NCBI GenBank assembly: GCA_021323375.2
Contig: JAJPCT020000026.1
Coordinates: forward strand, 8,574-72,573
DNA from: Candidatus Wolframiiraptor gerlachensis
Lineage (GTDB): Archaea > Thermoproteota > Nitrososphaeria_A > Caldarchaeales > Wolframiiraptoraceae
Direction of reading: 5' to 3'
DNA length: 64,000 nt
Part shown: piece after piece, positions 51,195 to 58,326 of the stretch
Layout: every line of letters starts with the position of its first letter
How positions within the stretch are numbered: the stretch's first letter is position 1
Notes under the pieces: model-generated
Database searches by the model: none
The model's input: only the letters and a program-made list of their open reading frames with translations
What the model was told of the DNA's origin: nothing
Translations under genes and position numbers: made by a program

Positions 51195-52812
<1,618 letters not shown>

Positions 52813-52957
52813 CCTAGGCGTGATCATGTGCTTAGGTCCCCATCTCTGTGGCTGGCGGAGGAGGCCGCCACACATGGGCGGGCCGGGTCAGCGGCCCGAG
52901 GGCGTTTCGTGGGCGGCACCGCCGTCGCCGCCAGCCAATAGTATGTGTGGTGCCTCT

Positions 52958-52972
52958 TGGATAAAACCTGTC
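52958..52972 (-). promoter_or_regulatory. Putative rRNA promoter (TATA box)
   Basis: Minus-strand CAGGTTTTATCC lies about 25 nt upstream of a GC-rich leader helix starting at 52936. Confidence 0.55.
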
Positions 52973-53028
52973 GTAGTTACTTCTCGAGGCGGTAGCGCTC
53001 CCAAGACTTATATCTCATCCTTGGACTG

Positions 53029-54360
53029 ATGGTTTGGAGCATGTCTTTACCTCATTCTGGAGGATGTTTCAGTGATAATTCTGGCCGCTGGTATTGGGAG
53101 TAGGCTTAAGCCCTTTCCGGGGCCTCCCCAAGTGCTTGATGGAGCTCAGAGCCTGGGGTAAGATATTCTCGATTTTATCCTCGAGAGAGGGTTAGGCGAG
53201 CCGGCCTAGGAGGATCATCGTGGTCACTAGGCGTGAATTCTCGCATTCTATTCGAGCGAGGCTCCTAACGATGTTGAGCTTGTAGAGTTGGATCCTGATC
53301 GCTTTGAGAATCTTTATAGCCTCTGGGCGGCTGTGGGCAGGGTTGATGGGAGCTTTCTGGTCTTAATGTCAGATCATATCTTCGAGTATGAGCTGTTGAA
53401 AAGGTCTTGAGTGAGGCGGTTAAGGCGCGGGAAGCGTTCATGCTATGTCTGGATAGGGAGCCCTCGGTTATCGAGGCTGAGGAGGAAGCATGAAGCTGAT
53501 GCTGTTGAATGGGAGAGTGGTCGAGGCTGATAAGTCCTTAAGCCCCTCTACAGGATCGATACAGGATCATCTATTGTAATCCCATGCTAGGAAGTATATC
53601 GAGGGGGCTTATCAGGTTAAGGAGGCTCGAAGGCGGCGATAAAGGATGCGTTGAACCTCGCTGCCGCCGAGAATCAAGTGGGTTTGTTGATGTTACTGGG
53701 CTGCTTTGGAAGGATGTGGATACACTCAGGATCTTGAGAAGGCGAGGAAGCTACTGGCGGATATAGGAAGGGGCTTACGAGACCGAGTGATGGGCTTGTA
53801 TCACGATATCTCAATAGGCAGATCTCATCAAGGGACTCGATATCACTCTGTAGGCCGGAGGCTATATCAATCAAACATCATATCCATAATCTCATTCCTG
53901 ATTTGTGTTTGCGGAGCCATTTTCTCGCCCTCCAAAGCTTTCTCATGGGCGGCCTGCTGATCCAAGCATCATCAATAGTTGATGGCGTGGATGGCAGAGC
54001 TTACCAAGGCTCTTTAGGAGGGGTATCGAGCTTCGGGGCATACTGGACTCTTTTCTGAATAGGCTGGCGATCTCTCCGTGATAATGGGGCTTATTATCGC
54101 GCCATGACCCTCGACCAGATCATCGGCATCATCTCAATTCTCGCATCAGCAAACATAATCCTAGTGAGCTACCTAACCCATCCCCTCCAAAGGAAGCCCG
54201 GAATCGATATATCACAGATCGGTTTCATTCCGGTTCACGCGTGATGTTAGGCTCTTTCATGGTATTCTTAGCCGCTATTCTCGGGATGCCTCTCATCGCG
54301 TTGCTTTACGTAGCTTTATCCCCTAGCATACTATACGGCTGGCCTGATCTTAGCCGCCCG
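53029..54360 (+). pseudogene. Bifunctional IPCT/DIPPS (di-myo-inositol phosphate synthesis), multiply frameshifted, probably sequencing error
   Basis: Fragments in shifting frames: VIILAAGIGSRL, ENLYSL, FLVLMSDHIFE, WKDVDT, DGLVSRYLNR, SSIVDGVDG and SSFGA. Confidence 0.8.
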
Positions 54361-55003
54361 TATCAGATTAGCCGGGTCGCGCCCCGTTGTTATTGGGGAA
54401 GAGCCCTGGCCTAGGATATTGCATCCAATAGACCCTGTAAAGGGGCTGTGCCAGCTCATTGGAAGAATGAACTTGAAGCTGATCCTGACCGCTGTAATCC
54501 TCTCGGGTTGATTATTTGATCTCTGCTTGATTTCCGGTTCTTGGGAGTTAATGGAAAGCTCCTGCTCCATAGGCACATCATATTAATCTTGGAGGCCGCT
54601 CTGTTATCGGCTTCAGCTATATGATAATCTCTTCGATGAAGAGGCTTTTAGACCTTATCACGGTAAGGCTTGTAAGTAGGATTGGACAGCCAAGGAGCCC
54701 TTAGAAGGATCTTTATCGACCTTCTATGCGACTCTCGGCTTAATAGCTTAGCGTGCTATTCATGTGAGCTTCGCATCTATACCCCGATTGGGGGTCTCGT
54801 CTCAAAGATAGTGATGGCGGCAGGCCGCCATACTCTTCCCTCACAACAATATACAGGCTCAGGAGAAGAACATACAGGACATTCGCCGAGGTTTATGAGA
54901 AGATTTGTAGAGAATCTTGCTAGAAGGCTTGCTCAGTGAGTAGAAGCTTCCCACTTGGATAAATACCGTTTAAATCCCTGAGTATGACTGGGCGTGTGGG
55001 TTT

Positions 55004-55016
55004 GGAAAGCCTTATT
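55004..55016 (+). promoter_or_regulatory. BRE/TATA promoter of the unknown structured RNA
   Basis: GGAAAGCCTTATT resembles AAAGCCTTATAAG at ~48380 and lies about 25 nt upstream of the helix start at 55041. Confidence 0.55.
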
Positions 55017-55040
55017 CGCCCCCAATGAATACAATCTAGC

Positions 55041-55244
55041 GAGGCTGGCCGGAACAGGGACGCGCCCATAGAAGGAGGCTGCCGGGGTGCCCGGAAAGCC
55101 GTCCTCATGGAGCACCACATGCCGGCCCGTGAGCGCCGCGTAACTGAAGAGCTACGGTGCGGTGTGGCTGAAGGGGCGTCCCACCTCGGGGAAAAGCTCA
55201 CGCGGTGGGATGCTCACAAGCCACGCGCCTCCGAGGCCAGCCTC
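55041..55244 (+). ncRNA. Unidentified ~205-nt structured non-coding RNA
   Basis: Perfect 10-bp terminal helix GAGGCUGGCC/GGCCAGCCUC, several internal helices with G-U pairs on the + strand, an upstream TATA and a downstream T-rich tract. Confidence 0.65.
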
Positions 55245-55287
55245 CAGCATATTTTCTTATCTGTTGAAGGCTTGGGCAGAGGTCGCT

Positions 55288-55905
55288 CACATTCTCGGTA
55301 CTTTCTCGGGCTAAGCCCTGCAACAACCTCCTAGAGGTCGACGTTTATCACGTAGATCGCGTGTAGCCTCATCTTCGAGGCTTCTCGACTGCGATCTCGG
55401 GCGTCCTATAGTAGTATTGGTCGCAGAGGCTTTTGAGAAGCTGTATCTCGGCGGGCCTCCTAGCGCTTCCGCCGGCTTCAGGAGGGTTCTTGGTATCTGG
55501 AGTATGTTGTGGGCTGGTGTCGCCAGGCTGAATCTATCGGCATGGGGGCTATATCTCGCGATCTTGCTAATAGCCCTCGCGGTGAGATATGCTTGAGGGT
55601 CGAGAGCATTCTCGGGCGATGTGAACCCGGTCTCAACCTCGATTATCAGGCTCTTTCCATCTCTCCAGGTCACGTCCGCTACTAGGTCGTTGGCGAGGGA
55701 TACTCGAGCTCAACCCTATAGCCCTTGCTCGCGGAGATGCGCTGCAAGGACATACTCCATTATCGAGTGGTTTATCTTTATTCTATTCTCCTGTGAAGCG
55801 ATATCAGCCTCTCCGCGATCTCGCCGATCCTCCGCCCGATGCTTAGGCCATACCTCTCTCAGAAGCCTTTGAGCGGTCCTCACATCCTCCCTCGAAGGCG
55901 TCCAT
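55288..55905 (-). pseudogene. Conserved-looking hypothetical protein (PD-(D/E)xK-like), frameshifted
   Basis: Fragments NRIKINHSIMEYVLAAHL, LVADVTW and LIIEVETGFTSPENALDPQAYLTARAISKIARYS. Confidence 0.6.
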
Positions 55906-55970
55906 TCTGGCGCCGGGCGGGTTACGGGAAATAATTAACCTACCGCGCCATTGGATGCGGGCTGTGGCTG

Positions 55971-57158
55971 CTAGAGGCGCCTCACCCGGGTGTGGCCATA
56001 ACTATAAAGGCGTTAAGCCTCCCATACATTATCTGCCTCCCTCGACTCGATAACATATCCAGCCGACTCAAGAGCCCTCCCAAAGATCACGGGCTTCGAG
56101 ACTATCGCGGTCAGCCTTGCATCGGAGCTGCACTCGGCGTATTGATGTGCAGACTTTCTGATAAAACTTCTCTATCTTTCTTACCCCATCCTTCATCCGT
56201 AAGGCGGGTTCATCAATGATATGACTGGGCCTTTCATCGAGCCACCTCGCCAAGCCTCCAGCACATCTCCGACCACGAGCTTGACGGCGTTCCAGGACGC
56301 CCTGCTGCCTCGGCATTCGCGACCGCGCCCCTAATACTCTTCGGCGATGCATCGGAGCCGATGATTCTAGGCCTGAATCGAGATCAGCCTCGGCCTCAAG
56401 CTCCTCCGCGATCTCCCTTATCCTCTCCCCATCTATGAACTTGAGCTTGTTTAGAGCTAGGTCGCTGAGCCTTCGTGCACCCGGAGGTATCTTGAGGCGC
56501 CATTAGAGCCGCCTCTATCGGTATTGTCCCGCCGCCGCACATGGGGTCTAGGAGAGCCTCTTCCCTCCTCCACCCCGAGGCATTAACATGCCCGCGGCTA
56601 TGTCTCGGCTGAAGCGCGGCTCTATGATGATAAACCCTGTAATATCTCCTATGGAGCGATTCCCGGTCGTGTCTAGGCCTATCAGGAGCTCCGAGTCCCC
56701 TGATGAGGCAGTAGAGCTGGACATCGGGATTATCTAGAGTTAACCCTGAGCCTCCCACGCCCGTCCTCTCTCTAAAGCTCTCTATTACAGCCCTGCCGAC
56801 GGCGGCGCCATATCCATGCTCTGTGAATGGCTTGTCCTTCGAGTGCCTCTCGCCCTTAACAGCAGATGCACTGATCAGCTCCGATGAACTCCGTGTAATC
56901 AACGCTGCTTGCAGCCCTGTAAACATCGTCTAAAACCTCCGCCTTGGATCGGGATAGGAGCCACGAAGACCCTGTCTGGATAGTCCTAGAGGCGAGGTTC
57001 AGCCTTATCGATATCATCCTCATCCGCCTCGAAAAATATCTTCCCGATATCGGGTCTCGCCTCCACCCCGATAATCTCCCTACACTCCCGCGCCGCGACA
57101 TCCTCCAAGCCCCATGATCGTGGTCGCGAAGCACTCGAACCTCAACTGCTCAGATCAT
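55971..57158 (-). pseudogene. trm14: THUMP-domain tRNA (guanine-N2) methyltransferase Trm14-like, frameshifted
   Basis: Fragments ATTIMGL, LNLASRTI, HRRYYRVYHHRAAL and LLDPMCGGGTIPIEAAL. Confidence 0.8.
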
Positions 57159-57165
57159 CCCCAGC

Positions 57166-58326
57166 CTAGATCTTTATCTCCACAATATCGCCATCCTCGA
57201 GGGACATGATCCGGGCCAACCCTCTAGCCCTGAACCTTGACCGATGATCCCCAAACCTTTGCATACTTCATCTTCTCGGCAAAGTCCCTGTGAATTATCT
57301 CGGCCAGATCCCTTATCGTCGAGTTTCTGGGAGGATTATCGGCTTATCCGAGGTGATGCCCGCCTTCCTCGTATAGACCCTTATCAGGTCAAGCGAGTTG
57401 AAGATCTGCCTCTTAAGATCTTGAGCCCGGCGCCGCCCTCGGCCGAGACCGCCACCACCGGAATCTCGCCAGCAATGCTCTTAACCTCTTCGAGATCATC
57501 AGCAGCCGCCAGATCAATCTTATTCACAACTATCAGAGCTCTCTTATGAGTCATCTCCACTTATCACGACCTCCTCCGAAGTCCTCGATGCTGGCCTCGC
57601 CGTGAACCCCTGACCACGGCATTCCTTATCCCAACAGATCTAAGCAGATCCTCCACCTCCCTCACATTAGCCCTGAGACTTCCGAAAACGACAAGCCTTA
57701 TCCCACCGCTATCCTTCTTCTCGATCTCGATCTCACACCTCTTCACGCCTAAAGCTGACACCGGACTCATCATATATCTCAAGTATTCTCTCGAGCTGGC
57801 TTGCCGGATCCCGCGCCCCGTCAGAGCACAATCAATATCAGGTCCGCGTTCTTCGAGAATCCAATCGACCTATTCGTGAACTGTGTCTCCTCCAAGCCCC
57901 TCAGTCAGGATCCGCGGGAAGCTCGACGAGCTGGATCTCAACATCCTCATATATCATCATCCTGGACGGGCATGGTTGTAGTGAGCGGATGGCTCGAGAA
58001 CCTGGGGCTTCGCATTCGTTAAGGCCCTGCAGAAGGCTTGACTTGCCGGGAGTTCGCTGCACCGATCAAGGCACGCCAGGCGGCACCCTCCTTAGGAACG
58101 TGAAAATAATCCCTTCTGACGGCTCTCAGGGATGCCTTGCGCTCAGCCTCCTCCTAAGCTCCATCCTCCGCCCAACCTCCCCTAAGCTTCTCCAGTCCCT
58201 TATGATCAGGTATCAGGCTAAGAGCCTCCTCAAGCGCCCTAATCTTCTCCTCAATAGTCCTAGCCGCCTGATACTTCGCCAGCGCCTTCTCAGCCTCAGC
58301 CGGCAGATTGGCAGGTCGTAAGCCAT
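57166..58326 (-). pseudogene. DRG/OBG family GTPase with TGS domain, frameshifted
   Basis: Fragments PANLPAEAEKALAKYQAARTIEEKIRALEEALSLIPDHKG, IVVNKID and C-terminal LEDGDIVEIKI. Confidence 0.85.

Follow-up and report, generated by a model that had tools for sequence, protein, structure and literature searches.

The question raised by positions 55041-55244 (+) of the window, namely the 64,000-nucleotide (nt) stretch of the Candidatus Wolframiiraptor gerlachensis genome analysed here, is whether this short region encodes a structured RNA and, if so, to which family that RNA belongs and with what it might act. An earlier, sequence-only reading of the window had placed here a non-coding RNA (ncRNA) of an undescribed family. 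Comparison of homologous sequences reveals that the region does contain an RNA gene, the intricately folded product of which belongs to no Rfam 15 family. The RNA is compact, structured, ~190-240 nt long and encoded by a single-copy gene. As considered below, the RNA may be the functional partner, within a ribonucleoprotein (RNP), of a putative PD-(D/E)xK-like nuclease encoded by the adjacent gene, a reading to which a probability of about 50% is assigned.

Conserved fold and pseudoknot

When followed inward from its closing helix, the RNA consists of P1, a conserved 7-by-4 internal loop, P2 and then three arms, namely P3, arm A and arm B (all RNA features lie on the plus strand). The 5' strand of P1 (55041-55050) pairs with 55235-55244 over 8-10 base pairs (bp) and, in an alignment of 27 family sequences, the eight modelled pairs are all 100% paired, with compensatory change being seen in six of the eight. 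Next comes the internal-loop strand J1/2 (GGAACA, 55051-55056), which faces GA(R) at 55233-55234. The family consensus of this loop is 5'-CGRRANA opposite 5'-GAR(N), with GGAA.AGG being invariant within the genus, and the loop recurs as CGAAAAA/GAG in Nitrososphaerales and as CGAGACA/GAGA in Bathyarchaeia. A kink-turn was considered at this position and dismissed, given how manual inspection by eye offered no register in which tandem G.A/A.G pairs lie beside a 3-nt bulge. The 5' strand of P2, as delineated by RNAalifold (GGGACGC, or GGAGCGC in the intact copy of the gene described below; 55057-55063), pairs with 55225-55232, and five of its seven pairs present compensatory change. The P2 3' strand (GCGCCUCC), the J2/1 loop (GA) and the P1 3' strand (GGCCAGCCUC) together occupy 55225-55244, with CUCCGA in the P2 3'/J2/1 region being invariant within the genus.

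The three arms are similarly preserved. The P3 arm (55064-55113) is a long hairpin containing internal loops and a conserved GGGG-NNNG-CC apex. When the 13 genus sequences were folded singly, each (13/13) gave the same hairpin in this region from differing sequences, and all 14 pairs of helices 3-4 of this arm underwent compensatory change, as did three of the six pairs of helix 5. Arm A (55114-55163) comprises a 9-bp helix (helix 6; compensatory change in 9/9 pairs), an internal loop that supplies the 5' strand of the pseudoknot and a GCCGC-tetraloop-GCGGY hairpin. Arm B (55164-55224) comprises a GUGGCU/AGCCAC helix, an internal loop (GAAG opposite ACA), a 12-bp stem (55174-85/55204-15) and an apical loop, with five of the six pairs of helix 9 and nine of the 12 pairs of helix 10 being compensatory.

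Across the 27 sequences, 94.1% of the 1849 alignment cells correspond to standard pairs, as compared to 37-42% when the partners were slid by 1-3 columns. Compensatory change was seen in 57 of 70 pairs and none of 500 shuffles reached any of the observed measures, bearing in mind that this alignment was fitted to a covariance model. Alignments of genus and Nitrososphaerales sequences not so fitted agree with these results. For the genus, MAFFT followed by RNAalifold yielded 58 pairs, 19 of which are compensatory, and the same architecture. When seven Nitrososphaerales sequences were treated in the same manner, the same layout of P1, loop, P2 and three arms was obtained, with 22 of 77 pairs being compensatory. 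Compensatory changes that preserve helices across homologues, the general mark of a structured RNA, are thus abundant at this locus, as a search for homologues and covariation proposed with the sequence-only reading was meant to reveal. As to the strand, homologues score 153-234 bits in the forward direction with the covariance model R1 (described below) but no more than 42 bits in reverse, and the many G-U pairs of the fold further fix the plus strand as that of the RNA, bearing out an argument made earlier from the G-U pairs of the window sequence.

The complementary segments on which the sequence-only reading built its fold are all present in the window at the positions it gave, and homologues distinguish between them. 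The P1 helix and the 12-bp stem of arm B were both drawn as they are found here, and both are conserved with compensatory changes. In the case of a helix drawn between 55162-69 and 55219-26, the inner six of eight pairs (GUGGCU/AGCCAC) are kept, whereas the other two are not. By contrast, the proposed pairing of GGAGGC (55074-79) with GCCUCC (55227-32) is lost in homologues, where GCCUCC instead pairs with the GGAG that follows J1/2 to form P2. Likewise, neither an arm spanning 55081-126, as then drawn, nor a GCGCCG (55133-38)/CGGUGC (55155-60) helix is kept. These three helices arise from deletions in the window copy of the gene.

A possible pseudoknot, also raised in the sequence-only reading, is likewise conserved. 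Here, the internal loop of arm A (CGUGAGC, 55128-34) pairs with the apical loop of arm B (GCUCACG, 55196-202), and the pairing covaries across eight sequence versions. At least seven contiguous pairs can form in 22 of the 27 family sequences, a number of pairs reached by shuffled loops in 7% of trials. The versions in question are CGUGAGC/GCUCACG, CGUGAGC/GCUCAUG, CGUGGGC/GCUCACG, UCAUGAAC/GUUCAUGG, UACGGGC/GCCCGUG, CCCGCAAC/GUUGUGGG, UUCACGACC/GGUCGUGGG and ACGAGCG/CGCUCGU. Five sequences from genus g3 fall below seven pairs in this ungapped test; by eye, these present CUCCG/CGGAG together with GGG/CCC and one bulge. As also read by eye, five of the seven Nitrososphaerales sequences keep a 5-bp pseudoknot with two compensatory changes, with the other two carrying a central C-A mismatch.

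Known RNA families, locus and distribution

No family in Rfam 15 matches the RNA, be it the copy in the window, the 12 close homologues tested or the 20 distant loci. A permissive scan of window positions 54800-55500 (701 nt; E <= 10) returned only two chance-level matches, one to a trypanosomatid small nucleolar RNA (14.8 bits, E 6, wrong strand) and the other to a cyanobacterial small RNA (sRNA; E 5.5). Neither the 12 close homologues (at E <= 1) nor the 20 distant loci (at E <= 0.1) gave any match, other than to ribosomal RNA (rRNA) and to a single transfer RNA (tRNA) lying away from the RNA in these loci. In the case of RNase P RNA, neither the type A (RF00373) nor the type T (RF02357) model matches at the locus or in the 12 homologue loci, and the archaeal signal recognition particle (SRP) RNA model likewise finds no match at the RNA locus. 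The genome contains its own RNase P RNA, seen as a full-length RNaseP_arch match at G000:C16:5336-5638 (141.1 bits; cut-off 84), with the best type-T score anywhere in the genome (13.3 bits) lying away from the RNA locus. It also contains a full-length SRP RNA (RF01857) at G000:C25:74183-74498 (-) (91.1 bits, E 1.9e-21). Since both genes lie elsewhere, the candidate RNA is neither. As an aside, the SRP RNA gene scores below the Rfam gathering value of 96.5 and so would be missed by annotation based on that threshold.

Other classes were considered in a similar manner. ARAGORN detected no tRNA or transfer-messenger RNA genes in window positions 54500-55800. Together with the Rfam scans, this upholds the earlier failure to see any hallmark of RNase P RNA, SRP RNA or tRNA in the sequence. 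As judged by eye, the box motifs of box C/D or H/ACA RNAs are not found. Indeed, an H/ACA assignment was rejected, as the ACA at 55216-18 is replaced by GCA in one and by GUA in seven genus sequences, such that eight of 13 differ. Riboswitch and ribozyme families were set aside given that no corresponding Rfam model matches. The features of an omega or other guide RNA are lacking, with the neighbouring protein belonging to no Pfam family, the RNA being found at one locus per genome and a guide segment not fitting, as are those of a type III toxin-antitoxin system, with the alignment containing no internal repeats and the RNA, which has a promoter-like element of its own, lying either convergent to the protein gene or after it. 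No paper describing the RNA or the protein surfaced in full-text literature searches. In its main-text passages, a 2026 preprint in which prokaryotic intergenic DNA was clustered names no RNA from Nitrososphaeria or Thermoproteota, although its supplements might list one. In short, the absence of Rfam matches, the presence of homologues rich in compensatory changes and the single copy per genome support the assignment to an undescribed family made in the sequence-only reading.

Examination of the locus itself revealed that the copy at window positions 55041-55244 is damaged by errors. The genome contains a second full-length place, C11:17272-17514, sharing 90% identity with the window copy in BLAST searches, with the remaining six genomic matches being no longer than 17 nt. 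This duplication is not confined to the RNA, as window positions 51453-58315 (G000:C26:60026-66888) match C11:14232-21097 over ~6.9 kb at 94.8% identity. The two differ by 172 indel events, as against only 141 mismatches. Most of the indels involve a single nt and roughly half fall in a homopolymer context; they extend into the 16S rRNA gene and break the protein genes of the stretch. This pattern, which uncorrected sequencing error fits and divergence does not, points to a single locus assembled twice, rather than a second gene. As such, 51453-58315 is probably unpolished, and calls of frameshifts or pseudogenes within it are suspect. The possibility that the RNA belongs to a miniature inverted-repeat transposable element or other dispersed repeat, for which many genomic copies would be expected, was dismissed on the same grounds, given that the genome holds only these two assemblies of one locus. 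A caveat attached to the sequence-only reading, namely that the segment is rich in indels and its fine structure possibly corrupted, proved correct.

Relative to 12 homologues, the window copy lacks 3 nt in the P3 apical hairpin, 2 nt at the base of P3 and 7 nt that take out the 3' strand of the GCCGC-tetraloop-GCGGY hairpin of arm A. Accordingly, R1 assigns 153 bits to the window copy and 226 bits to the C11 copy. The plus strand of window positions 55035-55255 folds at -114.4 kcal/mol (z -4.1), with none of 200 shuffles being as stable, and the minus strand folds slightly more weakly (z -3.5). The fold of the intact C11 copy reaches -148.7 kcal/mol (z -9.7) and beats 200 of 200 shuffles. No long open reading frame (ORF) spans the RNA stretch of the window, and the sole Rfam 15 match across the whole window is the 16S rRNA gene (51265-52760 (-)).

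The RNA presents promoter- and terminator-like signals of its own, as predicted from sequence. A promoter-like element GGAAAGCCTTATTC, comprising a transcription factor B recognition element (BRE; GGAAAG) and the TATA-like CCTTATTC, lies at 55004-55017 (+), some 25-38 nt upstream of P1. Equivalent elements are found at like distance elsewhere, namely, GCGAAAGCCTTATTC in the genus, GTGAAATGTATAAATC in g3, GCAAACGTTTATATAG in g6 and ACAAAAGTTTATATCA in Nitrososphaerales. Downstream, a T-rich tract (TATTTTCTTATCTGTT, 55250-55265 (+)) is a likely archaeal terminator, and a T-run appears ~5-15 nt past P1 in most lineages examined. Hence, both signals pointed to in the sequence-only reading are conserved in most lineages. 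Both are present even in the Nitrososphaerales subgroup, where RNA and protein gene share a strand, with the RNA coming second. No clear BRE/TATA was seen in the Bathyarchaeia (L187) and Calditenuis (L202, L203) sequences, where the T-run is weak or unclear. It was also observed that a GTATGAC motif lies ~60 nt 5' of the RNA (window 54982-54988) and at the same position in homologue loci, with one of its forms (GTATGAC, GTCATAC, GTATAAC or GTATTAC, in either orientation) preceding the BRE/TATA by ~20-25 nt in most lineages, Nitrososphaerales among them. The motif may be bound by a regulator or may add a second element to the promoter.

The distribution of the RNA was addressed by BLAST and by two covariance models, R1 and then R2, the latter built from the 27 model-aligned sequences. 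Of the 13 other genomes belonging to the genus, 11 gave a BLAST match to the RNA, in one copy each, and nothing convincing was found outside the genus. Across 35 genomes of the source's family (f1), including the source genome (G000), R1 found matches in 26 (12/13 in g1, 3/3 in g4, 5/8 in g5, 5/7 in g3 and 0/3 in g2). R2 found matches in 29 of the 34 other genomes of this family, with the corresponding values being 12/13, 3/3, 7/8, 7/7 and 0/3. The R1 and R2 matches are full-length and single-copy, with sequence similarity tracking genus boundaries; the copy number raised as a test in the sequence-only reading is thus one per genome. When searched with filters off beside the protein gene, seven of 14 further loci contained diverged full-length RNAs (29-52 bits), being found in 4/4 loci of g6, in 2/2 of g14 and in genome G061 of g8, with none in g9 (0/4) or g7 (0/3). 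Genome-wide, the RNA was nonetheless detected in both g9 genomes tested (45 and 41 bits), on another contig and between unrelated genes. Diverged forms exist in sister families, in a Nitrososphaerales subgroup and in Bathyarchaeia, and the RNA occurs in both hot-spring and soil archaea. BLAST, which is insensitive for RNA, returned matches in 8 of 121 sampled genomes with the Nitrososphaerales copy as query and in 3 of 151 with the Bathyarchaeia copy. A genome-scale model search of five distant genomes missed known copies, such that negative results from this search carry no weight for distant lineages.

The neighbouring protein and its linkage to the RNA

In each of the four f1 genera that contain the RNA, a convergent ORF of ~221-272 residues ends at or inside the 3' part of the RNA. 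In the window, this gene (~235 residues; 55204-55889 (-), C26:63777-64462), the 3' end of which overlaps the 3' part of the RNA, is broken, with the profile of alignment A6 matching this interval in fragments interrupted by stop codons; on C11, the gene is complete. Eleven neighbour proteins share a mean column identity of 53%. The protein belongs to no Pfam or NCBIfam family, none of five family proteins matches PADLOC-DB at E <= 0.1 and no sequence relative exists among solved structures (Protein Data Bank; best E 0.69). A database search returned 573 relatives, with all of the 120 matches listed being unnamed or 'hypothetical' and none containing a Pfam domain. In one-genome-per-species collections of public genomes, 565 relatives were found across Caldarchaeales, ammonia-oxidising Nitrososphaeria, Bathyarchaeia and other Thermoproteota.

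The AlphaFold model of the protein (mean predicted local distance difference test score (pLDDT) 89.7; predicted template modelling score 0.86) comprises an N-terminal three-helix bundle, an alpha/beta core and C-terminal helices, with the fold looking PD-(D/E)xK-like. The top structural matches of the modelled core (residues 46-199) are the XisH-like 2okf_B (Z 8.1; root-mean-square deviation 3.0, 114 aligned) and SPO1766 (3dnx; Z 8.0), followed by AF1548 (1y88; Z 7.4) and NucS (2vld; Z 6.1). In the ESM Atlas, only unnamed archaeal clusters were matched, the nearest named cluster being PDDEXK_14 at 0.85, which serves as a lead only. Six residues of the protein, D78, E91, E93 and K116 as well as E51 and K44, do not vary among the 28 diverse family members compared (28/28). 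The acidic D...ExE motif and the lysine expected of the PD-(D/E)xK superfamily are thus present, with E93 occupying the usual position of the (D/E)xK lysine, and D78, E91, E93 and K116 are presumed to form the active site. In the genus, the ORF continues for ~17 codons antisense into the RNA gene (window 55204-55260 (-); L049:1670-1719). As this tail is poorly conserved and modelled with pLDDT <50 (residues 227-235), it looks like incidental read-through. In some Thermoproteota (distant loci L150, L188 and L189), the protein gene was seen beside genes of DNA transactions, encoding archaeal Nre, an SNF2 helicase and an ATP-dependent DNA ligase with FtsJ, a weak hint that the protein may act on DNA.

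The RNA abuts the gene of this protein, there ~220-235 residues long, in three deep lineages and in differing orientations. In Caldarchaeales and at one Bathyarchaeia locus, the two are convergent and abutting, whereas in the Nitrososphaerales subgroup they are arranged in tandem on the same strand, with the RNA after the protein at 7/7 loci (four of the best 80 protein loci and three in further genomes). Among the best 80 of the 565 protein loci, the RNA lies directly after the protein gene in 23, of which 16 are of the Caldarchaeales-type convergent arrangement, four are of the Nitrososphaerales same-strand arrangement and three, one from Bathyarchaeia and two from unclassified archaea, are convergent. 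The outer flanks vary by genus and include genes for a UPF0020 methyltransferase and a cytidine diphosphate (CDP)-alcohol phosphatidyltransferase, for a major facilitator superfamily transporter and a trypsin-like protease, or for SBF and YHS-ATPase proteins; no other recurrent partner emerged from 42 ORFs flanking distant protein loci. Across the order (76 genomes), the protein is present in 28/34 genomes of f1, 15/19 of f2, 3/4 of f3 and 1/18 of f4. Within f1, the three genomes of g2, together with G021 and G009, lack both RNA and protein, and in G004 the RNA lies at the end of a contig, with the protein side cut off. Outside f1, G037 and G040, both 99% complete, contain neither and G061 contains both, while g9 keeps both though unlinked.

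These observations are consistent with a scenario in which the RNA and the neighbouring protein act jointly as an RNP. Here, two invariant elements, the internal loop between P1 and P2 and the apex of P3, would be likely surfaces for protein or tertiary contacts, the pseudoknot would lock the arms into a single rigid body and the RNA would either place the nuclease on its substrate or restrain it. The wide and mostly vertical range of the RNA fits cellular nucleic-acid processing or repair better than it does a mobile or defence element. A more far-reaching version, which we consider unlikely, would have the RNA be an obligate subunit of an unrecognised, Thermoproteota-wide RNP endonuclease, in which it would select or position the substrate for the PD-(D/E)xK catalytic protein. 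Such an enzyme would follow a logic like that of RNase P or RNase MRP using unrelated parts and might mature a stable RNA, such as pre-rRNA.

Several points weigh against joint action. No RNA was detected alongside 57 of the best 80 protein loci, mainly those of Nitrosopumilaceae, Nitrosotalea and most Bathyarchaeia. Similarly, all three g7 genomes encode the protein yet the RNA was not found, and the same was true of g7 genome G036 when searched genome-wide; in such cases, the protein may work without the RNA or the RNA may have diverged past the reach of the model. Moreover, as the genes are adjacent, a single deletion or assembly gap would remove both, such that their shared absence is weak evidence when taken alone, and convergent genes are not co-transcribed. 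Finally, the structural matches of the protein are middling, with Z scores of ~8 or less being common for unrelated pairs, and Foldseek, while assigning probabilities of up to 1.00 (at E 3.8e-3), found no match at E <= 0.001.

Two further observations were made in the vicinity of these genes. In Nitrosopumilus (L161:~1990-2050, L177 and L193 (+)), where the RNA studied here is absent, the 190-nt gap after the protein gene contains what, by eye, resembles a box C/D-like sRNA, with a GUGAUU...AAUCAC terminal stem, AUGAUGA and CUGA. Separately, the RNA gene is divergent from and lies 0.3-0.4 kb from the 5' end of the 16S rRNA gene in G011, G013 and G016 (L017:1-1113, L024:1-947 and L058:197-1204), while in the window genome the two are divergent and 2.3 kb apart. 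Counting the window and C11 copies as one genome, such a placement, at 0.3-2.3 kb, recurs in no fewer than four genomes; these span two genera, with G016 belonging to the second. The gene between the two in the window is presumably that of the CDP-alcohol phosphatidyltransferase, an assignment drawn from synteny with L049. Such proximity could be a hint of involvement in stable-RNA metabolism or could be plain synteny.

Alternative readings and closest known systems

Adjacency could reflect inherited gene order devoid of function, in which case the RNA would be a stand-alone structured regulator or scaffold. The unlinking of RNA and protein in g9, the far wider protein family (565 relatives, with the RNA adjoining only 23 of the best 80 loci) and the separate promoters of the convergent genes would all be in line with this tentative possibility, which we take seriously. 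Yet, the two adjoin each other in three deep lineages and two orientations while all other neighbours change, and genomes without one partner are without the other. The overlap between the genes, in turn, raises the question of whether the RNA regulates the neighbouring gene in cis, as an antisense or 3'-end element the transcript of which overlaps and controls the end of the messenger RNA. In the genus, the final ~50 nt of the neighbouring ORF are indeed antisense to the 3' part of the RNA and, in Nitrososphaerales, the ORF is closely followed by the RNA on the same strand. There is, however, no overlap in g3 and no linkage in g9, the overlapped protein tail is poorly conserved (pLDDT <50 at residues 227-235) and the RNA has its own BRE/TATA even where tandem to the protein gene. 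Furthermore, a fold of 70 pairs and a pseudoknot, kept independently of sequence, far exceeds what antisense pairing requires, rendering such a role quite improbable. A self-contained ribozyme or an orphan riboswitch-like sensor, for which no dedicated protein would be needed, is improbable. Although the multi-helix junction, long-range pseudoknot and few invariant unpaired nucleotides seen here are features common in ribozymes and aptamers, no Rfam ribozyme or riboswitch model matches; with a terminator right after the closing helix and no same-strand gene downstream, there is also no expression platform.

It might instead be argued that the RNA belongs to a known family, such as RNase P RNA, SRP RNA, guide or omega RNAs or sRNAs, but has diverged so that the models missed it. 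In its size and P1-P2-P3-pseudoknot layout it does resemble a minimal RNase P RNA, and it adjoins a nuclease gene, as omega RNAs do. Nonetheless, no Rfam match reaches the cut-off of any family, the genome encodes its own RNase P and SRP RNAs and ARAGORN finds nothing. Likewise, a single-copy RNA with no room for a guide between promoter, P1 and terminator, next to a protein that, lacking any Pfam match, is neither RuvC nor HNH, makes this very improbable. Lastly, the patchy presence of the RNA within the order, with g2 and most of f4 lacking it, and the nuclease-like neighbour could bring to mind an RNA of mobile, viral or defence origin, for instance the RNA antitoxin of a nuclease toxin. 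Such an origin is scarcely credible for an RNA found in one copy per genome, with similarity that follows genus boundaries and without the tandem repeats of type III antitoxins. In addition, none of five family proteins matches a PADLOC defence model, and a 16-nt motif of the RNA recurs by chance in 56 viral contigs, none of which contains the RNA itself (best score 14.5 bits).

A partnership between the RNA and the neighbouring putative nuclease remains the preferred reading and, if such a complex forms, a major archaeal phylum would prove to have a new RNP nuclease, a hypothesis that can be addressed with two recombinant components. Apart from this, the association of the genes offers a lead on a large orphan protein family having neither a name nor a Pfam domain, the covariance model can now annotate a gene missed by current pipelines and users of the assembly are warned that window positions 51453-58315 correspond to an error-rich duplicate. 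To our knowledge, RNA classes of this size that combine a multi-helix junction with a covarying long-range pseudoknot are rarely discovered, and we know of few such RNAs in archaea besides rRNA, tRNA, RNase P RNA and SRP RNA.

Among known systems, several features recall RNase P RNA, in particular type A (RF00373) and the minimal type T (RF02357) found in Thermoproteaceae. As there, the RNA considered here is an archaeal RNA of ~200 nt in which P1 closes the ends, P2 and a hairpin P3 come next and a long-range pseudoknot organises the core, and it would likewise use protein partners. It differs in matching neither model, in a full-length type A RNA already being encoded on C16 and in its putative partner having a PD-(D/E)xK-type fold rather than that of an RNase P protein. 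Moreover, its pseudoknot forms between an internal loop and a hairpin loop, whereas that of RNase P joins two junction strands. A second comparison is offered by bacterial Y RNA and Rsr, the Ro60 orthologue, modules with a role in nucleic-acid handling in which the Y RNA gene sits by that of its partner. Here too, a structured ncRNA gene of patchy distribution lies beside a protein gene in either orientation, although the archaeal neighbour, a putative partner, contains no TROVE/Ro domain (Pfam detecting nothing) and ARAGORN found no tRNA-like module in the RNA. OMEGA systems, in which omega RNA is paired with TnpB, IscB or IsrB and of which HEARO RNA corresponds to RF02033, similarly rely on a pseudoknotted scaffold RNA of ~200 nt encoded beside a nuclease gene. 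By contrast, the present RNA is single-copy and outside any transposon, matches no Rfam family, leaves no guide segment between TATA box, P1 and T-run and neighbours a protein with a PD-(D/E)xK-like rather than a RuvC/HNH fold.

OLE RNA with its Oap proteins and raiA RNA, orphan large bacterial ncRNAs with protein partners and a biochemical function that is not known, likewise came to light through comparative genomics as complex conserved folds with a recurrent gene association. Relative to these, the RNA described here is archaeal, much shorter than OLE, bears no relation to them in sequence or structure, as judged by the lack of an Rfam match, and lies beside a different putative partner protein. 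As for that protein, its core (residues 46-199) superposes on PD-(D/E)xK nucleases of the XisH, AF1548, NucS and Hjc type (Z 6.1-8.1) and presents the acidic motif and lysine of these enzymes. At the same time, it is set apart from them by the lack of a sequence-family match, by an additional N-terminal three-helix bundle and C-terminal helices and by E93 at the lysine position.

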